Position numbers and translations under genes: made by a program. From assembly GCA_949287895.1 (NCBI GenBank), contig CASEIS010000118.1, positions 2,808-66,807 of the forward strand: a stretch of 64,000 nt of DNA. Direction: 5' to 3'. Positions 22,670 through 53,197 of this stretch are shown here, one piece after another. The notes under the pieces were generated by a model that worked only from the letters and a program-made list of their open reading frames with translations, ran no database searches and had not been told where the DNA came from. Numbering within the stretch: position 1 is the stretch's first letter; each line of letters opens with the position of its first letter. Source of the stretch: an uncultured Bacillota bacterium. GTDB lineage: Bacteria > Bacillota > Clostridia > Christensenellales > Borkfalkiaceae.

Positions 22670-25039
22670 ATGGAAAACGCGATCCTGAAAAAATTGGAAC
22701 TGAATAAGGTGCTCGCGAGCGTCGCGAGCTATGCCGTGTTGGATGAAACAAAGGACAAGATCTGTGCCATGCAGCCGAGCACAGACCTGCAGGAGGTCGC
22801 GGCCATGCAGGAACTGACGGCCGAGGCGGACGCCGCACTCTTCCGCTACGGCGTCGGGCGCATCGAGTGCTTTCCGCCCCAGCGCGACGAATTGGATCGC
22901 GCGCAGAAGGGGGCTTCGCTCTCCTGTGCCGAGCTCCTCTCAGCGGCGGCGCTGCTGCGCTCCGCGCGCGTCGCTTTCCGCTCTGTACAGGGGTTGCCCG
23001 AGGAGAGTTCGGTGCGCCTGCGTGAGATCGCGTCCGGCATCTATTTCGACGAAGCGCTCGAAAAGGATATTACCGACAAGATCCTCGGCGAGGACGAAGT
23101 GAGCGACTATGCGAGCGACGCGCTGCTGAATATCCGCCGTTCCATCCGCTCCCTTAACGAGCGCATCCGCGCCAAGCTCGGCGAGTATCTGAGCGGCGAA
23201 GGCGCCAAATACCTGCAGGATGCGATCGTCACCATGCGCGACAACCGCTACGTCCTGCCCGTGCGCGCCGAGCACAAGGGGAAGATCCGCGGCTTCGTGC
23301 ACGACCGCTCGGCGAGCGGCGCGACCTTTTTCATCGAGCCGGAACAGATCCTCGACATGAACAACGAGCTGCGCGAATTGGCGGCGGCGGAAAAGGAGGA
23401 GATCGAGCGCATCTTGGCGCAGCTGTCTCACCGCGTCGGCGGCATGGCCGAGCAGCTGCGCGGCGACATCGAACGGCTGTGCGAGATAGACTCCGCCTAC
23501 GCGAAGGCGGAGTACTCATATAAGACCAAGTGCACGCAGCCCCGCCTCAACGATGCGGGCGTGCTGCGCATCGAAAAGGGGCGGCACCCGCTGCTAGACC
23601 CCAAGACAGCCGTGCCCGTCTCCCTCGCCTTTGGCAAAGGGGATCGATTTTTGCTCATTTCCGGCCCGAATACGGGCGGCAAGACGGTCACGCTGAAGAT
23701 GTGCGGCCTGTTCTGCATGATGGCCTGCTGCGGGCTCTTCCTTCCTGCAGCGGAGGGGACAGAGGTCGCCGTGTTCGGGCAGATCTTCTGCGACATCGGC
23801 GACGCGCAGTCGATCGAAGAAAACTTGTCCACCTTTTCTTCGCATATCCGCAATATCATCGGCATCCTCGAGCGCGCCGATGCGGGCAGCCTCGTCCTCA
23901 TCGACGAGCTCGGCGGCGGAACGGACCCCGACGAGGGTCAGGCGCTCGCCAAGGCGATCTTGTCCGAGCTGCTGCGGCGGGGCTGCCGCGGTATCGTCAC
24001 GACGCACTATACCTCCCTCAAGGAGTTTGCTTATGCGACGGACGGCATCGAAAACGCGAGCATGGAGTTTGACATGAACACGCTGCAGCCGCTCTATCAC
24101 ATCGACCTGGGCGTGCCGGGCAGCAGCAACGCCATCGCCATTTCTCGGCGATTGGGGCTTTCAGAAAGAGTATTGCAGGATGCCGTCGCAAATCTTTCGG
24201 AGGGCGGTCAGAAATTTGAAAATATCCTGCGCACCGCCGAACAGAGCCGCATCGAGGCGGACGAGGCCAAAAAGCAGGCCGATCGGCTGAAGGCAGAGTG
24301 GAGTGCAAAACTCGCCGAGGTGGATGCCGAGCGCGAAAAGCTGAAAAAAGAGCGCGAGAAGCTGTTTTCGACGGCGAAGATGGAGAGTCGCCGCATCGTG
24401 CACGAGCGGACGGAGCAGGCGGAGGCGCTGCTTGCCGAGATCGAGGAAGTCGCAAAAAAGAAGGAGCTGACGGAAGCCGACCTCATTCGCGCGCGCACGC
24501 TCAAAAACAAACTGGCCGACAAGGCGTATGACACGGCGCGCGAGGAGGAAGAAAGGCCGACGGGTGCGCGCATTTCCGTCAAAGATCTGCACATCGGAGA
24601 CCGCGTATTCGTGCAGGCGATCGGTTCGGTCGGCGAAGTGCTCTCCGTCAACGAAAAAAAGAAGGAGGCGGAGGTGCTCGTCGGCAGTATGCACATCAAT
24701 GTCAAAGAAAAGGACTTGTTCGGCGTGACCGGCAGCGCGCGCAAAAAGGAGCGCGACCGCGTGCAAGTCGTGCGCAAGACAGAGCCCGTTGCGGCCGTGC
24801 AGACGGAGATCAATCTCTTGGGGATGACCGTCCCGGAAGCCATCCAGGAAGTGGACCAATTTATCGACAAAGCGGTGCTCGCCGGGTTGGAAGAGGTCAA
24901 GATCATCCACGGCGTCGGCACCGGAAAGCTCAAAGAGGGGATCCGCCGCCATCTGCGCGAGATGCGAAATGTGCAGGAATTCCGCGCCGGCGCTTACGGC
25001 GAAGGCGCCGCCGGCGTCACCATCGTCAAACTGCGCTGA
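22670..25039 (+). CDS. mutS2: MutS2 (endonuclease / ribosome collision factor)
   Basis: GRHPLL, SGPNTGGKT, DIGDAQSIEENLSTFSSH, DELGGGTDP, C-terminal Smr domain IIHGVGTG. Confidence 0.95.
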   Translation: MENAILKKLELNKVLASVASYAVLDETKDKICAMQPSTDLQEVAAMQELTAEADAALFRYGVGRIECFPPQRDELDRAQKGASLSCAELLSAAALLRSARVAFRSVQGLPEESSVRLREIASGIYFDEALEKDITDKILGEDEVSDYASDALLNIRRSIRSLNERIRAKLGEYLSGEGAKYLQDAIVTMRDNRYVLPVRAEHKGKIRGFVHDRSASGATFFIEPEQILDMNNELRELAAAEKEEIERILAQLSHRVGGMAEQLRGDIERLCEIDSAYAKAEYSYKTKCTQPRLNDAGVLRIEKGRHPLLDPKTAVPVSLAFGKGDRFLLISGPNTGGKTVTLKMCGLFCMMACCGLFLPAAEGTEVAVFGQIFCDIGDAQSIEENLSTFSSHIRNIIGILERADAGSLVLIDELGGGTDPDEGQALAKAILSELLRRGCRGIVTTHYTSLKEFAYATDGIENASMEFDMNTLQPLYHIDLGVPGSSNAIAISRRLGLSERVLQDAVANLSEGGQKFENILRTAEQSRIEADEAKKQADRLKAEWSAKLAEVDAEREKLKKEREKLFSTAKMESRRIVHERTEQAEALLAEIEEVAKKKELTEADLIRARTLKNKLADKAYDTAREEEERPTGARISVKDLHIGDRVFVQAIGSVGEVLSVNEKKKEAEVLVGSMHINVKEKDLFGVTGSARKKERDRVQVVRKTEPVAAVQTEINLLGMTVPEAIQEVDQFIDKAVLAGLEEVKIIHGVGTGKLKEGIRRHLREMRNVQEFRAGAYGEGAAGVTIVKLR

Positions 25040-25157
25040 AGGCGGGCGGCCGCAGCTTCCGCGCGCGGCCGGACGATGGACAAAGGCGGAGAGCATAACT
25101 TTCCTTTCCCGTTCATACATTGACTTGATCGATGTGTTAGACGGGAGGTAGGATGAC

Positions 25158-25874
25158 TTGAAACGCTCCTCGAAAGTTGCCCTCATCACCAACCTTTGCT
25201 TGGCCGGCTTGCTGCTGATCGTGGGAACGGTGTGTTTTTATCCCTTCGATATTTCGACGGCGGGAAAGCCGACCGATCGCGTCTATTATGCGGGAAACCG
25301 GGAAAGCGCGTACGTTTCTCTCATGTTCAACGTCTATTGGGGGACGGAATATATCCCGGCCATCCTCGATACTTTGGATGAATATGGCGTCAAAACGACC
25401 TTTTTTATCGGCGGAAGCTGGGCAGACGATCATGCCGAAACGCTGCGCGAGATCGTACGGCGCGGGCATGAATTGGGCAACCACGGTTATTTTCATAAAG
25501 ATCCGGACAAACTTTCGTATGAACAGAACCGCGAGGAGATCCGCCTGTGCGGCGAGCTTGTCGAAATGCTGACCGAACAGACGATGACGCTCTTTGCGCC
25601 CCCGTCAGGCGCCTATTCGGACGCGGCGGTCGATGCGGCCGAGGACCTCGGGTACAAGGTCATTTTGTGGTCAAAGGATACGATCGACTGGCGCGACCAC
25701 GACAGCGCGCTCATTTTTGACCGCGCGGCGGACGTGCGGGGTGGCGACCTCGTTTTGATGCACCCGACCAAAGAGACGGCGGCGGCGCTGCCGTCCGTCT
25801 TGCAACATTATAAAGACAGCGGCCTCGAGCCAGTGCCTGTATCCGTCAATATCGGCGGTGCGGTGCTTGGCTGA
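25158..25874 (+). CDS. Polysaccharide deacetylase family protein (YlxY/PdaB-like)
   Basis: N-terminal TM, SLMFNVYWG, HELGNHG, LFAPPSG, LMHPT; precedes an M16 peptidase. Confidence 0.8.
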   Translation: MKRSSKVALITNLCLAGLLLIVGTVCFYPFDISTAGKPTDRVYYAGNRESAYVSLMFNVYWGTEYIPAILDTLDEYGVKTTFFIGGSWADDHAETLREIVRRGHELGNHGYFHKDPDKLSYEQNREEIRLCGELVEMLTEQTMTLFAPPSGAYSDAAVDAAEDLGYKVILWSKDTIDWRDHDSALIFDRAADVRGGDLVLMHPTKETAAALPSVLQHYKDSGLEPVPVSVNIGGAVLG

Positions 25875-34831: not shown

Positions 34832-34916
34832 GTGAGGATGGCGGAACTGGCAGACGCGTACGTTTGAGGGGCGTATGGAGAAATCCGTGTGGGTTCAAGT
34901 CCCATTCTTCACACCA
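34832..34916 (+). tRNA. tRNA-Leu(GAG)
   Basis: Cloverleaf with anticodon arm TACGT-TTGAGGG-GCGTA, encoded CCA; promoter TTGACA-17-TAAACT (34792-34820). Confidence 0.96.
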
Positions 34917-47235: not shown

Positions 47236-48159
47236 ATGAAGATCCGTTCCTGCTTATCAATCATCCTTATCCTCGCACTGCTTTTGTTATGCGGCTGTTC
47301 TGCCGTCTTTACGCGCGCAGATAGCCCGCAAGAGATCGAGCTGCAGCCCTCCGCACAAGACAGCGCCGAGGTCGATCCGTCCTGCCGCAGTCAGGGCGCC
47401 GTCGTCTCGATCGTCTCGATCGGGACTTTTCGGTATGGCCTCGCACTCGGTTCCGTCGTCAGCATCACGTCCGGCGTCATCATCGATCATGAGGGGTACG
47501 TCGTTTCCTCGTCGGAAGCAGCGCTGCCTACGCTGATCGATCAAAACGGCGATATCTATGTCGGTGAAGCGACGGCGATCTATGCTGTCCTTTCCGATGT
47601 GTATCAAAACGATCGCTCGCTCTATAAATTAGATCTTGTCGATATGGACGAAGATCGCGGCCTGGCACTGCTTTCCTTTTATGATCGGTTTTACTATGAT
47701 GCCGAAGATTTCGGCTCCGGCGATAGGGTCGGCCGCACGGAAGGCTTCCCGATCGTCGCCGAATTTTCTGCTGAGACGGCTTTGACCGGAATGCCTTGCA
47801 CCATCATCGGCAATGCGATCAGCGGCGTCATGAACGATCTGCAATATCCGTTTTCGATGGAATACGTCTGTCTTTCGGCTTCGCGCGGCATCGTCGCATC
47901 TGCAAGCGCCGCCGATTTTCTCATTTCTGCAGCCATCAGCGCAGAGATGGGCGGCAGCGCGATCTTTGATGCGAGCGGTTATCTGATCGGCCTCGTTTCT
48001 CAAAAGTTGCCCGGCGATACGGCAGGGGATTCGACCTATCTCGAAAATATCGCATCCGGCATTTGTTCCGCGGCGATCATCGATTACATTGATACTGTTT
48101 CGGCCTCGTTACATGTGCCGATCCCGTACACGGTCGCAACCGGGGAGGCCGCCGCATGA
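47236..48159 (+). CDS. Lipoprotein with one degenerate trypsin-like (S1C) domain
   Basis: Lipobox LCGC; AVVSI, SGVIIDHEGYVVS, IIGNAI, EMGGSAIFDASGYLIG; catalytic His and Ser motifs lost. Confidence 0.65.
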   Translation: MKIRSCLSIILILALLLLCGCSAVFTRADSPQEIELQPSAQDSAEVDPSCRSQGAVVSIVSIGTFRYGLALGSVVSITSGVIIDHEGYVVSSSEAALPTLIDQNGDIYVGEATAIYAVLSDVYQNDRSLYKLDLVDMDEDRGLALLSFYDRFYYDAEDFGSGDRVGRTEGFPIVAEFSAETALTGMPCTIIGNAISGVMNDLQYPFSMEYVCLSASRGIVASASAADFLISAAISAEMGGSAIFDASGYLIGLVSQKLPGDTAGDSTYLENIASGICSAAIIDYIDTVSASLHVPIPYTVATGEAAA

Positions 48160-50060
48160 GACGCTGCAGACATTTTTTCCGCTTCTATTGTTTGCCGGTG
48201 CTGTTGGCCGCAGCCTTACTTTTACTCTCTGCCTGCGGCATCGCTGCACCGCCGGAATACGACGGCAACAGGCGCTTTGAAACAGCCTATACTGAAACGG
48301 ACGAGAGCCTTTCGACCAACTTTTCCGAAGCCTATGCCGCCGCATCCGCATCCGTCGTTATGGTCGAAGTCCGTGCCTCTGCAGCCGATATCACTTACGG
48401 CAGCGGCGCCGTCATTGACGGCGAACAGGGCTACATCCTGACCTCTTCGTCGTTGGTTGCGCGCGATGCGATCACCGAGCCGACATATACGGTTACTTTT
48501 GCCGACGGAAACAGCGCCTCCGCGACGCTGTATGGGTACGGCGCGCGTTCAACCGGCCGCTGGTTCTATCGTTCGCCATCGGTGAGCGACGACCGCATCC
48601 CGAGCAACGCCGATATTGCCGTTTTAATTGTAGACGGCGCTGCAAATGGGCGCTATACCGACTTGAACGGAACGGAGCACGCTTTGCCGCAAGCGCTCGC
48701 CTTTGCGGATTCAGACGCGCTTACTTATGGCGAAAGCTGTTTTCTTATCGGGACCGTCGTCAGCAAAGATGGCGCCAAGCCAGGATTGGCTGCCGAAGGA
48801 CTTATCTCCAAACCATCCAATACACATACTTCAAATTTTGAATTTGCAGACGGCAGCAGCCTGTTTGACGGCTCGTTTGCCTATCTCGTGCAGACGAGCA
48901 TCCAAACGAATAGCGGAAATGAAGGCGCGCCGTTGCTCAACGAGGCCGGGCAGATCGTCGGTCTGATCAACCGCCGCGCCGAGACGACGGAGCGCTATGT
49001 ACAAGGCGAAGCGTACGGGCTCTCTTTTGCGACACCTTCGACAGTGATCTGCGATACGCTCGCTGACGGCGGGATCGATATCCAGCCGGAAGAAACGCCG
49101 CTGCCTACGCGCGAAAGTATCATTTCAAACGCCGATTCCATTCACATGGCGACCGATCCCGTCGCACAGATCCTGATGCGGCGCCGCCCGGCCGTCACGT
49201 CCTCTCAAAGTCAATACATCGGCAGTTCCGATTATTACGTCGCCGATGCAAGCTCGCCGATCATTTTCGCTGCGGCAAAACAATGGGCGCAAGCATCTAC
49301 AAGCGCGCAAAAAGTCGCCGCGGCGACACTGGATAAAGTCGTCAAAATTATTGTTTACTCTGATCACATCGGCGCAGAAGAAGTGATCAATCTCAGTGAA
49401 GGAAGCGGCTTTCTCGTCCATTCGAGCGGCCTTGTCATGACGAATTTGCACGTCCTCAATAAATTGACCGAGCGCAACCAAATCGAAGCGGGTACCGCCA
49501 ACGCACGAGTCGATATCGAGGGTATTTCAGTCTTTGCCGTCTTTGAAAACGGAACGGACCGCTATGGACGCTTTATCCTGTTGCCGATGGATGTCGTCGC
49601 TTATCAGCAGCAGGGGGACCTGGCCGTGCTGCGCTTCCAAAACCAGATCTTTACCGAAACGGACAGCGACGAACCCGCAGAGGGATTTGCCGATATCTGT
49701 ACCTTTGAAAAGACGCTGCCGCAGCGCGGCGATACGGTCTATGCCATCGGCAACGCTGTCGCGTACGGCATTTCGATCGCGGACGGCATCGTTTCACTGC
49801 CAAATTCATCGTATTACCGCGACGAATTCGGCTATGACATGATCCAGACAGATTGCCCGATCAACGGGGGCAATTCCGGTGGCCCGATGTTGAATGCCGA
49901 AGGTCACGTCATCGGCGTCAATACGCTCGGCATCGGCGGCGAACTTACAACAAAATATGGCTATGAAAATATCAGCTGGGCCATCCCGGCAGCCTTTGCA
50001 GAACAATTTTTGCAGGCGGTGCTGCAAGGCCAAAGCGGAAACGGCGTCACCATCGTGTGA
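48156..50060 (+). CDS. Lipoprotein with two trypsin-like (S1C/HtrA-type) domains and no PDZ
   Basis: Lipobox LSAC; domain 1 GSG..ILTSSS, DIAVL, GNEGAP; domain 2 GSG..MTNLHV, DLAVL, GNSGGP. Confidence 0.82.
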   Translation: MRRCRHFFRFYCLPVLLAAALLLLSACGIAAPPEYDGNRRFETAYTETDESLSTNFSEAYAAASASVVMVEVRASAADITYGSGAVIDGEQGYILTSSSLVARDAITEPTYTVTFADGNSASATLYGYGARSTGRWFYRSPSVSDDRIPSNADIAVLIVDGAANGRYTDLNGTEHALPQALAFADSDALTYGESCFLIGTVVSKDGAKPGLAAEGLISKPSNTHTSNFEFADGSSLFDGSFAYLVQTSIQTNSGNEGAPLLNEAGQIVGLINRRAETTERYVQGEAYGLSFATPSTVICDTLADGGIDIQPEETPLPTRESIISNADSIHMATDPVAQILMRRRPAVTSSQSQYIGSSDYYVADASSPIIFAAAKQWAQASTSAQKVAAATLDKVVKIIVYSDHIGAEEVINLSEGSGFLVHSSGLVMTNLHVLNKLTERNQIEAGTANARVDIEGISVFAVFENGTDRYGRFILLPMDVVAYQQQGDLAVLRFQNQIFTETDSDEPAEGFADICTFEKTLPQRGDTVYAIGNAVAYGISIADGIVSLPNSSYYRDEFGYDMIQTDCPINGGNSGGPMLNAEGHVIGVNTLGIGGELTTKYGYENISWAIPAAFAEQFLQAVLQGQSGNGVTIV

Positions 50061-50091: not shown

Positions 50092-50619
50092 GCAAAACAC
50101 TGCGTAAAATACTGCGCGTAGGGTATCGCTCGCTGCGGGAAGAGAGCGCGCCGTTTTGCCAAAACCGCCGGCCAAACGCATCGGTGCCCGGCATCACGCG
50201 GGCCATGATCGACCGCCTGACAACAAATTATGCAGCTCTTTTGACGAAGTCGAAAAGACGTCCGTCATTTTTATTGGCTTGATTGAAAGTGCAATGGATG
50301 CTGCGCGCCGTACAGATCAAACAAAATGCGCCGCGAGTGACAGAATATAGGCGAGCCATCCATCAAAGCCTCGCACAAATTCTGTCTCAGCGCGCCTTAG
50401 AGGCTCTTTTGTTCATATATAAATTCAATGAAAACAAACACACCTCAAACCGCCGCGATAACCGATAGAATCTGAAAGGCAAACTTGTGCACCAGGATGA
50501 TTCATTTTATAAAGGCGGCGCCAAAGCATCAAAGCACGAAAGAATTCAAAACATTAGGCCACACCACCTCGTTTTATGCCTATTTATTCGTAAAAGTCGT
50601 GTTTTACGCAGTGTTTTGC
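50092..50619. repeat. Perfect 18-bp inverted repeat pair (50092-50109 and 50602-50619)
   Basis: GCAAAACACTGCGTAAAA and TTTTACGCAGTGTTTTGC. Confidence 0.85.
50585..50612. other. Candidate dif-type recombination site (11-6-11)
   Basis: TATTCGTAAAA-GTCGTG-TTTTACGCAGT; 7-bp inverted arms around a 6-bp spacer, about 210 bp upstream of the recombinase. Confidence 0.55.
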
Positions 50620-50786
50620 GTGTCTTGTTTTCTCCTCTACCACAAAAAGATGCGTGGCGCGTCATTCAATATAAGGAAGCTCTCACGTATAAAATTGCCG
50701 CCTGATGCGCTCTTACCGGCCCGCGCACAACAATTCCGGCTGCTTGCAGGCATATGCAGGCCCCTATGAATTTTTCAGACAAATCG

Positions 50787-50815
50787 TTGATTTTTTTGCC
50801 GTCATGCGGTATAAT
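50787..50815 (+). promoter_or_regulatory. SigA-type promoter of the recombinase gene
   Basis: TTGATT-17 bp-TATAAT ending 9 nt before the ATG. Confidence 0.7.
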
Positions 50816-50824
50816 ATCCTATAT

Positions 50825-51886
50825 ATGGCCGAGCAATCTTTTTACCAAAAACGAAATATCAAAAATTTAGAGCGCATCGAAGGCCTTTTAGAAGAGCTTC
50901 CACCCTTTGTTGAAGAATACTTTTTGGGGATCGAGAACCAGACGAGCACGCTGACAAGGCTCAATTACGCCTACGATCTGCGCATTTTTTTCGATTATCT
51001 CTCCAAAAAGCGGCTGCACGGAAAGGACGTTCGCTCCATCACCCTATCCGACCTCGAGGCGGTCTCTGCGACCGATATCGAGCGGTTTATCAGCTATCTG
51101 TCCAATTATGAGTTCCGCGGGGCGCACGAAAGCTGCAACGAACGCGCAAAAGCGCGCAAACTGTCGACCATCCGCGCCATGTTCAAGTACTTTTTTAAGA
51201 AGGAAAAGATCAGCGTCGACAACGCGGCAAAGGTTACGATGCCCAAACTGCACGAAAAAGAGATCATCCGCCTGGAGCCGAACGAGATCGCCGATTTGCT
51301 GAACTGCGCCGACTCGGGCAGCGGCATGAGCAACCACCAGCGCGCGTTCCATGACAGGACGCGCGTGCGCGACGTCGCAATTTTGACGCTCTTTTTGGGA
51401 ACGGGCATCCGTATCAGCGAGCTCGTCGGGTTGAACGACGAAGACATTGACTTTTCTTCTAACAGCTTCAAGGTGACGCGCAAAGGCGGCAACCAGGCTA
51501 TCCTCTACTTTTCGCAGGAGGTCGCCGATGCGCTCGCGCGCTACATGGCTTTTAAGGAAGAAGACCCGGAGATCCCGGAAGGCGAGCACGCACTGTTTCT
51601 GTCACTGAAAAAGCAGCGCATCAGCATCCGCGCCGTCGAAAACCTCGTCAAAAAATACAGCCGCATCATCTCGCCGCTGAAAAAGATCTCTCCCCATAAA
51701 CTCCGCAGCACCTATGGCACGCAGCTGTATCGGGAGACCAAGGATATCTACGTCGTCGCCGACGTACTCGGGCACAAAGACGTCAATACGACGCGCAAGC
51801 ATTACGCAGCCATCAGCGAGGACGTGCGCCGCGACGTGGCCGAAAAGGTACACCTGCGCGAACAAGACCCTCCACAGGACAAATGA
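50825..51886 (+). CDS. Xer-family tyrosine recombinase (single, XerS-like size, 353 aa)
   Basis: GIRISE, TRKGG, PHKLRST, LGH, RKHY give a complete R-K-H-R-H-Y set; housekeeping context next to hflX. Confidence 0.88.
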   Translation: MAEQSFYQKRNIKNLERIEGLLEELPPFVEEYFLGIENQTSTLTRLNYAYDLRIFFDYLSKKRLHGKDVRSITLSDLEAVSATDIERFISYLSNYEFRGAHESCNERAKARKLSTIRAMFKYFFKKEKISVDNAAKVTMPKLHEKEIIRLEPNEIADLLNCADSGSGMSNHQRAFHDRTRVRDVAILTLFLGTGIRISELVGLNDEDIDFSSNSFKVTRKGGNQAILYFSQEVADALARYMAFKEEDPEIPEGEHALFLSLKKQRISIRAVENLVKKYSRIISPLKKISPHKLRSTYGTQLYRETKDIYVVADVLGHKDVNTTRKHYAAISEDVRRDVAEKVHLREQDPPQDK

Positions 51887-51900
51887 GCGCGATCATGCGC

Positions 51901-51929
51901 GATTTATGTCACGCATAGTACTTTGCAAA
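51901..51929 (+). repeat. 29-bp dispersed motif, copy 10
   Basis: GATTTATGTCACGCATAGTACTTTGCAAA; between the recombinase and hflX. Confidence 0.85.
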
Positions 51930-51931
51930 AT

Positions 51932-53197
51932 ATGGAAATACGCGAAAATATCGACCAAAACGGAATTCAAGAAAAAATTTATATCGTACAGCCCATCTTA
52001 AACGACGAGGCGCTCGCCCTGCGCGACGAGGCTGTATCGCTGATCGAAAGCGCGGGCGCGCTCTACGCGGGCACCATCTTCCAGAAGATCCGCGATGTCA
52101 ACCCCGCAACTTTTATCGGGCCGGGCAAGCTGCAGGAGCTGCGCGAGCGGCTGGACGGGCTGGATGTGACCGTCCTCTTCAACGGCGAACTGACCCCCTC
52201 CCAAACGCTCAACATCTCCGCCGCGCTGGACAATAAAAAGGTGATCGACCGCACCACGCTCATTCTCGATATCTTTGCCAACAATGCGCGCAGCAGCGAA
52301 GGCAAGCTGCAGGTCGAACTCGCGCAGCTGCAGTATATGTATCCGCGCCTCAAAGGCAAAGGCGAAGCGCTCTCCAGGCTCGGCGGCGGGATCGGCACGC
52401 GCGGCCCGGGCGAAACGAAATTAGAAACGGATCGCCGTCGCATCCGCATGCGGATCGCCTATTTGAAAGATCGCCTCAACACACTTGAAAATCGCCGCGA
52501 GCTCGTCAATGCGCGCCGCAAAAAGGAATCTGCACGGCGCATCGCGCTCGTCGGCTATACAAATACAGGGAAATCGACCCTGCTCAACTTGCTGACGGGC
52601 GCCGATGTTCCTGCCGAAGATCGCCTGTTTGCGACGCTCGACCCTACGACGCGCCGCCTCGTCATCGACGGGATCGAGTTCTTGCTCACCGATACTGTCG
52701 GTTTTTTGCGCGAACTGCCGCACAACCTGATCTCCGCATTCCACTCGACGCTCGAAAGCGCGCTCAACTGCGACCTCGCGCTGATCGTCTGTGACGCGAC
52801 GAGCGATTATCGGATGCAATACGAGACGACGCTGCAGACGCTCAAAGAGCTCGAATGTGACGTTCCTTGCCGCATCGTCATGAACAAGTGCGAATCGATC
52901 GATTGCTTTGACGAATATCCCCGCGATGCGATCTTTATCTCCGCTAAAGAGAATATCGGTATCGATCGCCTTCGGCAGGAAATCTTAAGACATTTTTCCG
53001 CCGATATGTCGACCGTCTGCCTGCGCATCCCCTACACGCGCATGAACGAATACGCGCGCGTCAAAGGTTATGCAGCGGAGAGCGACTTTCGCTATATGGA
53101 TGACTGTGTAGAGCTGTCGGCACGCATCCCGAACATCCACCTGTCGAAGTTTGCCCCCTTTCGCATCCCCGACCGCGAGGAAAAACAGCCTCGGTAA
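51932..53197 (+). CDS. hflX: Ribosome-splitting GTPase HflX
   Basis: IDRTTLILDIF, GGIGTRGPGETKLE, GYTNTGKS, LFATLDPT, DTVGF; start uncertain. Confidence 0.95.
   Translation: MEIRENIDQNGIQEKIYIVQPILNDEALALRDEAVSLIESAGALYAGTIFQKIRDVNPATFIGPGKLQELRERLDGLDVTVLFNGELTPSQTLNISAALDNKKVIDRTTLILDIFANNARSSEGKLQVELAQLQYMYPRLKGKGEALSRLGGGIGTRGPGETKLETDRRRIRMRIAYLKDRLNTLENRRELVNARRKKESARRIALVGYTNTGKSTLLNLLTGADVPAEDRLFATLDPTTRRLVIDGIEFLLTDTVGFLRELPHNLISAFHSTLESALNCDLALIVCDATSDYRMQYETTLQTLKELECDVPCRIVMNKCESIDCFDEYPRDAIFISAKENIGIDRLRQEILRHFSADMSTVCLRIPYTRMNEYARVKGYAAESDFRYMDDCVELSARIPNIHLSKFAPFRIPDREEKQPR

Follow-up and report, generated by a model that had tools for sequence, protein, structure and literature searches.

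The tyrosine recombinase gene and the short inverted-repeat site upstream of it, found in the 64,000-nucleotide stretch of DNA analyzed here (the window), very likely represent a single-recombinase chromosome dimer resolution module of the XerS/difSL kind that lies at the replication terminus. Resolving chromosome dimers is central to the cell cycle of bacteria. The site was found to be conserved among relatives, linked to the recombinase gene and located at the terminus, and no canonical XerC/XerD pair was found in the genomes searched. The conservation, the terminus position and the absence of such a pair support the preliminary description, which had proposed a single-recombinase dimer resolution module with its own dif sequence.

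The 28-mer, in the letters first given, reads TATTCGTAAAA-GTCGTG-TTTTACGCAGT and occupies positions 50585-50612 of the window. Both the sequence with its AAAA-N6-TTTT core and the position proposed for it were borne out, and the 28-mer was found to lie within a 13-6-13 dif-type site, TTTATTCGTAAAA/GTCGTG/TTTTACGCAGTGT, at 50583-50614 (no strand is assigned to this site, nor to the repeat copies and the segment described below). The 28-mer occurred only once in the window when up to three mismatches were allowed, and 100 shuffled windows gave no occurrence. It was likewise found once, at up to six mismatches, in the 1.7-Mb draft genome to which the window belongs (G000; 177 contigs, 1.72 Mb, 62% G+C, 84% complete). 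Scored against the arm consensus, the window site reached 23/26, the top value in its own genome, where the background did not exceed 20. The end of the site is separated from the ATG of the recombinase by 212 nt, in agreement with the spacing of about 210 bp first estimated. Between the stop codon of the upstream protease gene (50060) and the recombinase ATG (50825) there is a gap of 764 nt that contained short open reading frames (ORFs) only. An RNA gene in this gap was rejected on the absence of Rfam matches at E values up to 1, and the two longest ORFs of a 476-nt segment within it had no match among the PHROGs, so the earlier view of a gap of about 760 bp with no convincing gene was upheld.

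The recombinase gene (50825-51886, plus strand) encodes a XerS-like protein of 353 amino acids with PF00589 and PF02899 matches. The catalytic residues R196, K220, H291, R294, H317 and Y327 were all present and were invariant in an alignment of 19 orthologues, confirming that the enzyme is catalytically complete. In a comparison with NCBIfam models, the XerS equivalog NF003462 gave 204.7 bits, below its cut-off of 267, with residues 13-342 aligned to positions 5-356 of the 360-position model. The XerC, XerA and XerD models scored 161.9, 158.2 and 151.5 bits, and the protein stayed under the equivalog cut-offs of XerC (335 bits) and XerD (329.6 bits) as well; no XerH-specific model was among the NCBIfam matches. 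XerS was the top NCBIfam model in all 19 of 19 orthologues. XerS is the nearest named relative of the recombinase, yet the equivalog test failed. Solved structures of XerD and XerA were among those matched at E values of 1e-10 or better. Among the 120 best relatives, no specific name was found in public databases, and the Atlas label was a generic recombinase/integrase.

A promoter-like sequence, TTGATT-17-TATAAT (50787-50815, plus strand), ends 9 nt before the recombinase ATG, and the pattern TTGnTT-17-TATAAT, ending 6-9 nt ahead of the ATG, was present in 23 of 24 genus-level loci. Since no room is left for a ribosome-binding site between the promoter and the ATG, the recombinase transcript probably has no leader, or hardly any. 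Downstream lies hflX (51923-53197, plus strand; TIGR03156, 377 bits), a conserved neighbor that followed the recombinase gene in 61 of 154 loci. The further neighbors in the window were an alpha-amylase-family gene and two trypsin-like protease genes, and the statement that no phage or ICE genes lie nearby was correct. The two protease genes (307 and 634 amino acids; 47236-50060) overlap by 4 nt, and approximately 370 N-terminal residues of the 634-amino-acid protease had no family match.

A scan at one genome per species yielded at least 598 relatives, with Gallimonas-, Scatosoma- and Christensenella-like assemblies of the order Christensenellales among them. Of the 30 relatives searched genome by genome, 19 had an orthologue, each a single one, which was 76-80% identical in members of the genus and 46-57% identical in those of other families of the order. 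The palindromic site was seen ahead of the gene at almost all loci of the relatives. With a score of 22/26 or more, it was present within 1.5 kb upstream of the gene in 74 of 97 orthologous loci, whereas none of the 97 downstream controls of equal length reached this score (maximum 20). The median distance from site to start codon was 180 nt for the 74 sites, 31 of which had perfectly symmetric 13-nt arms, and the consensus was (A/T)CTAT(G/T)CG(C/T)AAAA-N6-TTTT(A/G)CG(C/A)ATAG(T/A). When 150 further Clostridia genomes were sampled evenly, 20 had an orthologue of at least 44% identity, 15 of them in other orders, and the same site was seen upstream in six other-order Clostridia loci. The proposed conservation of the 28-mer upstream of orthologous recombinases was thus observed in the genus, in the order and in other orders of Clostridia, and the predicted one-enzyme system is widespread in gut Clostridia. 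The label "atypical" that had been given to the site did not hold: the site is standard for its lineage, though unusually asymmetric and apparently rearranged in the window genome. The orientation of the 6-nt center relative to the gene flips between close relatives, CACAGC in L003 and L139-L141 versus GCTGTG in L004 and L009, while the arms remain symmetric.

The position of the site relative to the terminus was determined in two single-contig complete genomes from other families of the order. In G022 (2,560,186 bp), the cumulative GC skew peaked at 2,269,332, the gene was located at 2,269,467-2,270,507, the site at 2,270,631-2,270,654, and dnaA at 910,801, 53% of the circle away. The corresponding positions in G026 (2,422,126 bp) were 25,634 for the skew maximum, 24,207-25,211 for the gene, 25,327-25,350 for the site and 1,254,057 for dnaA, 51% of the circle away. 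The site therefore lay 1.3 kb (G022) and 0.3 kb (G026) from the cumulative skew maximum, with dnaA opposite. Five genomes of relatives each carried one site at zero or one mismatch, G022 having one additional, weaker 1-mismatch match. On the contig of the window, the GC skew changes from positive to negative with a cumulative maximum at 34,893, 15.7 kb from the site, while the AT-skew maximum and a switch of coding strand lie at about 53,420, just past hflX and 2.8 kb from the site. These nearby switches place the window site in the terminus region of its own draft contig, where the fit to the skew switch is approximate only. In line with the expectation of a unique site at the skew inflection, the site was thus unique per genome and lay at the inflection in the two complete relatives, and approximately so on the own contig.

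This position also bears on a rival explanation, in which the palindrome chiefly acts as an operator or attachment site, serving autoregulation or mobile elements, and the recombinase would be a domesticated integrase that has no role in dimer resolution. Such a function would agree with the placement of the site upstream of the recombinase gene, with orphan arms that often lie beside the recombinase promoter in other lineages, and with the full sites present on two viral contigs (both described below). Nevertheless, an operator would not be expected to lie within 0.3-1.3 kb of the skew maximum in two unrelated complete genomes, and the window site is located approximately 170 nt upstream of the promoter. 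Furthermore, the occurrence of one orthologue per matched genome across the order, with changing neighbors, fits a housekeeping role. We consider the operator or attachment-site explanation very unlikely and retain the dimer resolution module as the preferred reading.

If the module is a one-enzyme system, no XerC/XerD pair is expected in the same genome. Searches of G000, G020, G022, G024 and G026 gave no match above the 329.6-bit cut-off of the XerD model, and the terminus recombinase itself was the best match to this model in four of the five genomes. In G022, another recombinase of 314 amino acids scored 173 bits on the XerD model, above the terminus enzyme and far below 329.6. In the own genome, the window recombinase was the sole full-length PF00589 protein, accompanied by two short fragments. 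FtsK with a gamma domain was encoded once in each of the five genomes. In addition, a search of the own genome with the dif sequences of E. coli and B. subtilis, a weak test, gave no match at up to seven mismatches. It had been noted in advance that a classical dif with an xerC/xerD pair elsewhere would speak against the module; no such pair was found above the family cut-offs in the five genomes, and no classical dif-like sequence was detected by this weak test. As side observations, three relatives (G026:C1:35958, G024:C5:136510 and G022:C1:2327923) carried ftsK at a distance of just 10-57 kb from the site, which places the translocase gene itself near the terminus, and three tyrosine-recombinase genes were arranged in tandem on one strand at G024:C5:588350-591093. 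Tandem recombinase trios are a layout met on mobile elements.

Because the own genome is a draft in 177 contigs and 84% complete, it leaves room, taken alone, for a missing xerC or xerD. The system could then be of the two-recombinase XerC/XerD type, with the partner gene absent from the incomplete assembly and a heterodimer acting on the site, and the asymmetry of the window site, in which 8 of 13 arm positions match, would agree with two different proteins. However, the near-complete relatives G026, G020 and G024 (95-98% complete, G026 being a single contig) contained no XerC/XerD-like protein near the cut-offs, the next-best match to the XerD model in G026 reaching 43.8 bits. Moreover, most sites in the family are perfectly or nearly symmetric, which fits one protein binding both arms. 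A missing partner is thus very unlikely, and the single-recombinase module is favored.

For this module, a course of events can be proposed by analogy with Xer, Cre and XerH. A pair of recombinase molecules would occupy the two arms of the site, and FtsK would probably be what joins the two sites of a dimeric chromosome as the septum closes. The enzyme would cleave at the borders of the 6-bp center, and a two-step strand exchange would add a crossover that converts the dimer into monomers. Binding, cleavage and dependence on FtsK are what we infer from these analogous systems.

The window site was among the least symmetric of the family. Its right arm, ACACTGCGTAAAA when written as the reverse complement, and its center GTCGTG correspond to variants present in other members of the genus, while its left arm TTTATTCGTAAAA is a variant native to more distant lineages (L052 and L085). 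Judged from these variants, the site is a hybrid, with the right arm and center of its own lineage and the left arm of others. The preliminary description had overlooked a 21-nt inverted repeat formed by the right arm with 7 nt of its outer flank. One copy, GTG-TTTTACGCAGT-GTTTTGC, is located at 50599-50619, and its inverted partner, an orphan arm with outer flank (GCAAAAC-ACTGCGTAAAA-TAC), at 50092-50112; the two differ by one mismatch and are 95% complementary. The copy at 50092-50112, a left arm of ancestral type that matches the right arm and lies 476 nt upstream, is a half-site only, in which TAC is followed by non-arm sequence, and is homologous to an extra upstream arm in the closest relatives. 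These three relatives (L149, L143 and L238; 84% protein identity) share the arrangement arm-TACACC-arm-center GTCGCG-right arm. Homology to them ends after the first arm and TAC (50112) and restarts exactly at CGTAAAA (50589). The same interval is 476 nt long in the window versus 11 nt in the three relatives. The resulting 476-nt orphan segment (50113-50588) separates the displaced arm from the inner, conserved portion of the site, and its last 6 nt (TTTATT) form the outer part of the present left arm.

No relatives of the segment were found in its own genome, nor was there a match in 245 fetched loci by blastn and tblastx or in 50,697 phage records by blastn. A phage origin was rejected on the lack of matches to phage records and fetched loci and of PHROG matches for its two longest ORFs, and a MITE or IS-type repeated element was rejected as well, the segment being single-copy in the genome, where only the 18-21-nt arm unit is repeated. 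In another assembly, a 99%-identical protein (P0001) was called with extra N-terminal sequence that runs across the same hybrid site, showing that the hybrid arrangement is not an artefact of a single assembly. The near-identical strain from which P0001 comes lacks one G within 50753-50770 of the window, so that a spurious upstream ORF spanning the site is fused to the recombinase in a 462-amino-acid call, and automatic gene calls can thereby hide the site. When metagenomes were scanned for an allele of this species with an empty site, no match exceeded 84% identity.

The pair of repeats at 50092-50112 and 50599-50619 could alternatively bound an invertible switch of 486 nt that is flipped by the adjacent recombinase, after the model of fimS or the RecV switches of Clostridioides difficile. 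A 21-nt repeat of 95% complementarity flanking 486 nt directly upstream of a tyrosine recombinase gene would suit such a switch, as would a minus-strand promoter-like site inside the interval. However, the left copy is a half-site with no second arm, and in the relatives examined the extra arm either has another location (21 nt upstream or downstream of the site) or was not seen. In the second assembly (P0001), the site and no less than the final 88 nt of the segment are oriented as in the window. In addition, the recombinase and its site are located at the terminus in relatives that have no such segment at all. An invertible switch is accordingly extremely unlikely, and the dimer resolution module remains the preferred reading.

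Further orphan arms were found apart from the window site. A third exact copy of CGTG-TTTTACGCAGT-GTTTTG is located at G000:C114:10260-10280, between rsmG and a downstream gene, and a genus-type right arm, TTTTACGCATAGAT, lies 63 nt ahead of it (span G000:C114:10195-10280); a matching left arm is absent from both. The CGTG-TTTTACGCAGT-GTTTTG unit was present no more than once per genome in 48 further members of the genus. Five loci (L053, L072, L076, L077 and L091) carried an orphan arm approximately 50 nt before the recombinase gene, with the full site 1-3 kb off. The orphan arm at these loci is identical to the arms of the site, with an A/T-rich hexamer (for example TATTTT or TAAATA) after it, and in L076 and L091 the seryl-tRNA synthetase gene (serS) is located between it and the full site. 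An orphan arm by the recombinase gene could be an operator or an old position of the site. Directly upstream of the site in the closest relative L149 (L149:1-2330), a run of small minus-strand ORFs was observed, several with a hydrophobic stretch, together with a 265-amino-acid ORF carrying a P-loop-like GCGKD motif. The small ORFs had no match in Pfam or PHROGs. This region could be an integrated small element; a filamentous prophage is not claimed for these membrane-like peptides and the P-loop protein, which lack Pfam and PHROG matches.

The arrangement of a displaced arm, 476 nt and a hybrid site may be the scar of a recombinase-mediated insertion at the border of left arm and center, similar to those of mobile elements exploiting Xer (IMEX), a tentative reading to which we give rather less than an even chance. 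It is suggested by the junction at the arm/center border and by the center that is still joined to the chromosomal right arm. Counting against it, the segment has neither genes nor relatives, the metagenome scan gave no empty-site allele of the species, a third copy of the arm unit lies on another contig, and orphan arms near the site are common in the family. Since they are common there, and since the housekeeping gene serS can lie between site and orphan arm, such arms may have another origin or a regulatory role. Taken together, the rearranged window site and the orphan arms elsewhere point to a possible insertion hotspot at the site. If the insertion is real, the enzyme now acts on a site whose arms differ at five of the six outer positions and, in view of the recurrent orphan arms, the terminus site would be a frequent entry point for foreign DNA in gut Clostridia; alternatively, the extra copies would be accessory or regulatory binding sites.

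Viral contigs were also inspected for the attachment junction predicted from such an insertion, and this candidate was rejected. The 18-mer gave one match that was not site-like, and the 16-mer (arm and TAC) matched 14 viral contigs, 12 of which shared one conserved context and none of which had a site-like second arm. These matches are consistent with chance or unrelated sequence. As an independent observation, full symmetric sites were present on two viral contigs, at L261:1278-1305 and L262:6894-6921, one contig being 4.8 kb in size with long ORFs and the other 90.9 kb. No Xer-like gene was found within the fetched flanks of the two sites. The contigs may derive from phages that depend on the enzyme of the host to integrate or to resolve multimers.

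With the predicted module, the bacteria with one-enzyme systems would come to include a large group of gut Clostridia, most of them uncultured. Its site could serve as a simple sequence marker of the replication terminus in fragmented Clostridia genomes, and the defined pair of site and enzyme could be of use for genetic tools in gut Clostridia. The symmetric arms also raise the questions of how one enzyme orders the strand exchanges and how FtsK controls it.

Among known systems, IMEX include the CTX, VGJ and TLC phages and the gonococcal island, which are several kb in size and use XerCD. The window arrangement resembles them in that putative foreign DNA lies between a good and a degenerate site, with the junction at the arm/center border and the center still linked to the chromosomal right arm, as expected from the exchange of one pair of strands. 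It differs in that the window segment is only 476 nt long, without genes and without relatives.

The single-recombinase systems named in the literature are XerS, XerH, XerL and archaeal XerA (PMC5357621, PMC9765430 and the dif-prediction paper). The bacterial ones are hosted by streptococci and lactococci (XerS), epsilon-proteobacteria (XerH) and Legionellales (XerL) (PMC5357621, PMC9765430). No description of a one-enzyme Xer/dif module in Clostridia was found in the literature searched and, to that extent, the module is an unreported Clostridia variant of the single-recombinase Xer/dif kind. The closest parallel is XerS/difSL of Streptococcus and Lactococcus (Le Bourgeois 2007; Nolivos 2010, PMC2965235; reviewed in PMC5357621). 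In common with it, the module comprises a single recombinase of about 355 amino acids, a site immediately upstream of its own gene, a location at the terminus, arms that end in AAAA before the center and begin with TTTT after it, and genomes in which FtsK with a gamma domain was present and XerC/XerD was not found. In contrast to difSL, which is 31 bp long with unequal arms and a longer center (PMC5357621), the Clostridia site has a 13-6-13 (or 11-6-11) structure with a 6-nt center and is often a perfect palindrome. Moreover, the protein remains under the XerS cut-off (204.7 versus 267 bits), and the hosts are Clostridia (Christensenellales and other orders) instead of Lactobacillales. The XerH/difH system of Helicobacter and Campylobacter (Bebel 2016, PMC5241119; PMC5357621) likewise has a single recombinase with a site near its gene and an AAAA and TTTT inner core around a short center. 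However, it belongs to a different phylum, its outer arm sequence is another, and no XerH chain was among the solved-structure matches of the window recombinase at E values of 1e-10 or better. With XerL/dif of Legionellales, whose site is exploited by a mobile element carrying a dif mimic (PMC9765430), the module shares the single recombinase and the long uninterrupted inverted repeats of the site. Whereas in L. pneumophila over 400 kb separate xerL from dif and XerL is reported to show no detectable sequence homology to known Xer proteins (PMC9765430), the recombinase gene and the site are adjacent in the Clostridia module, and its recombinase is clearly Xer-like.
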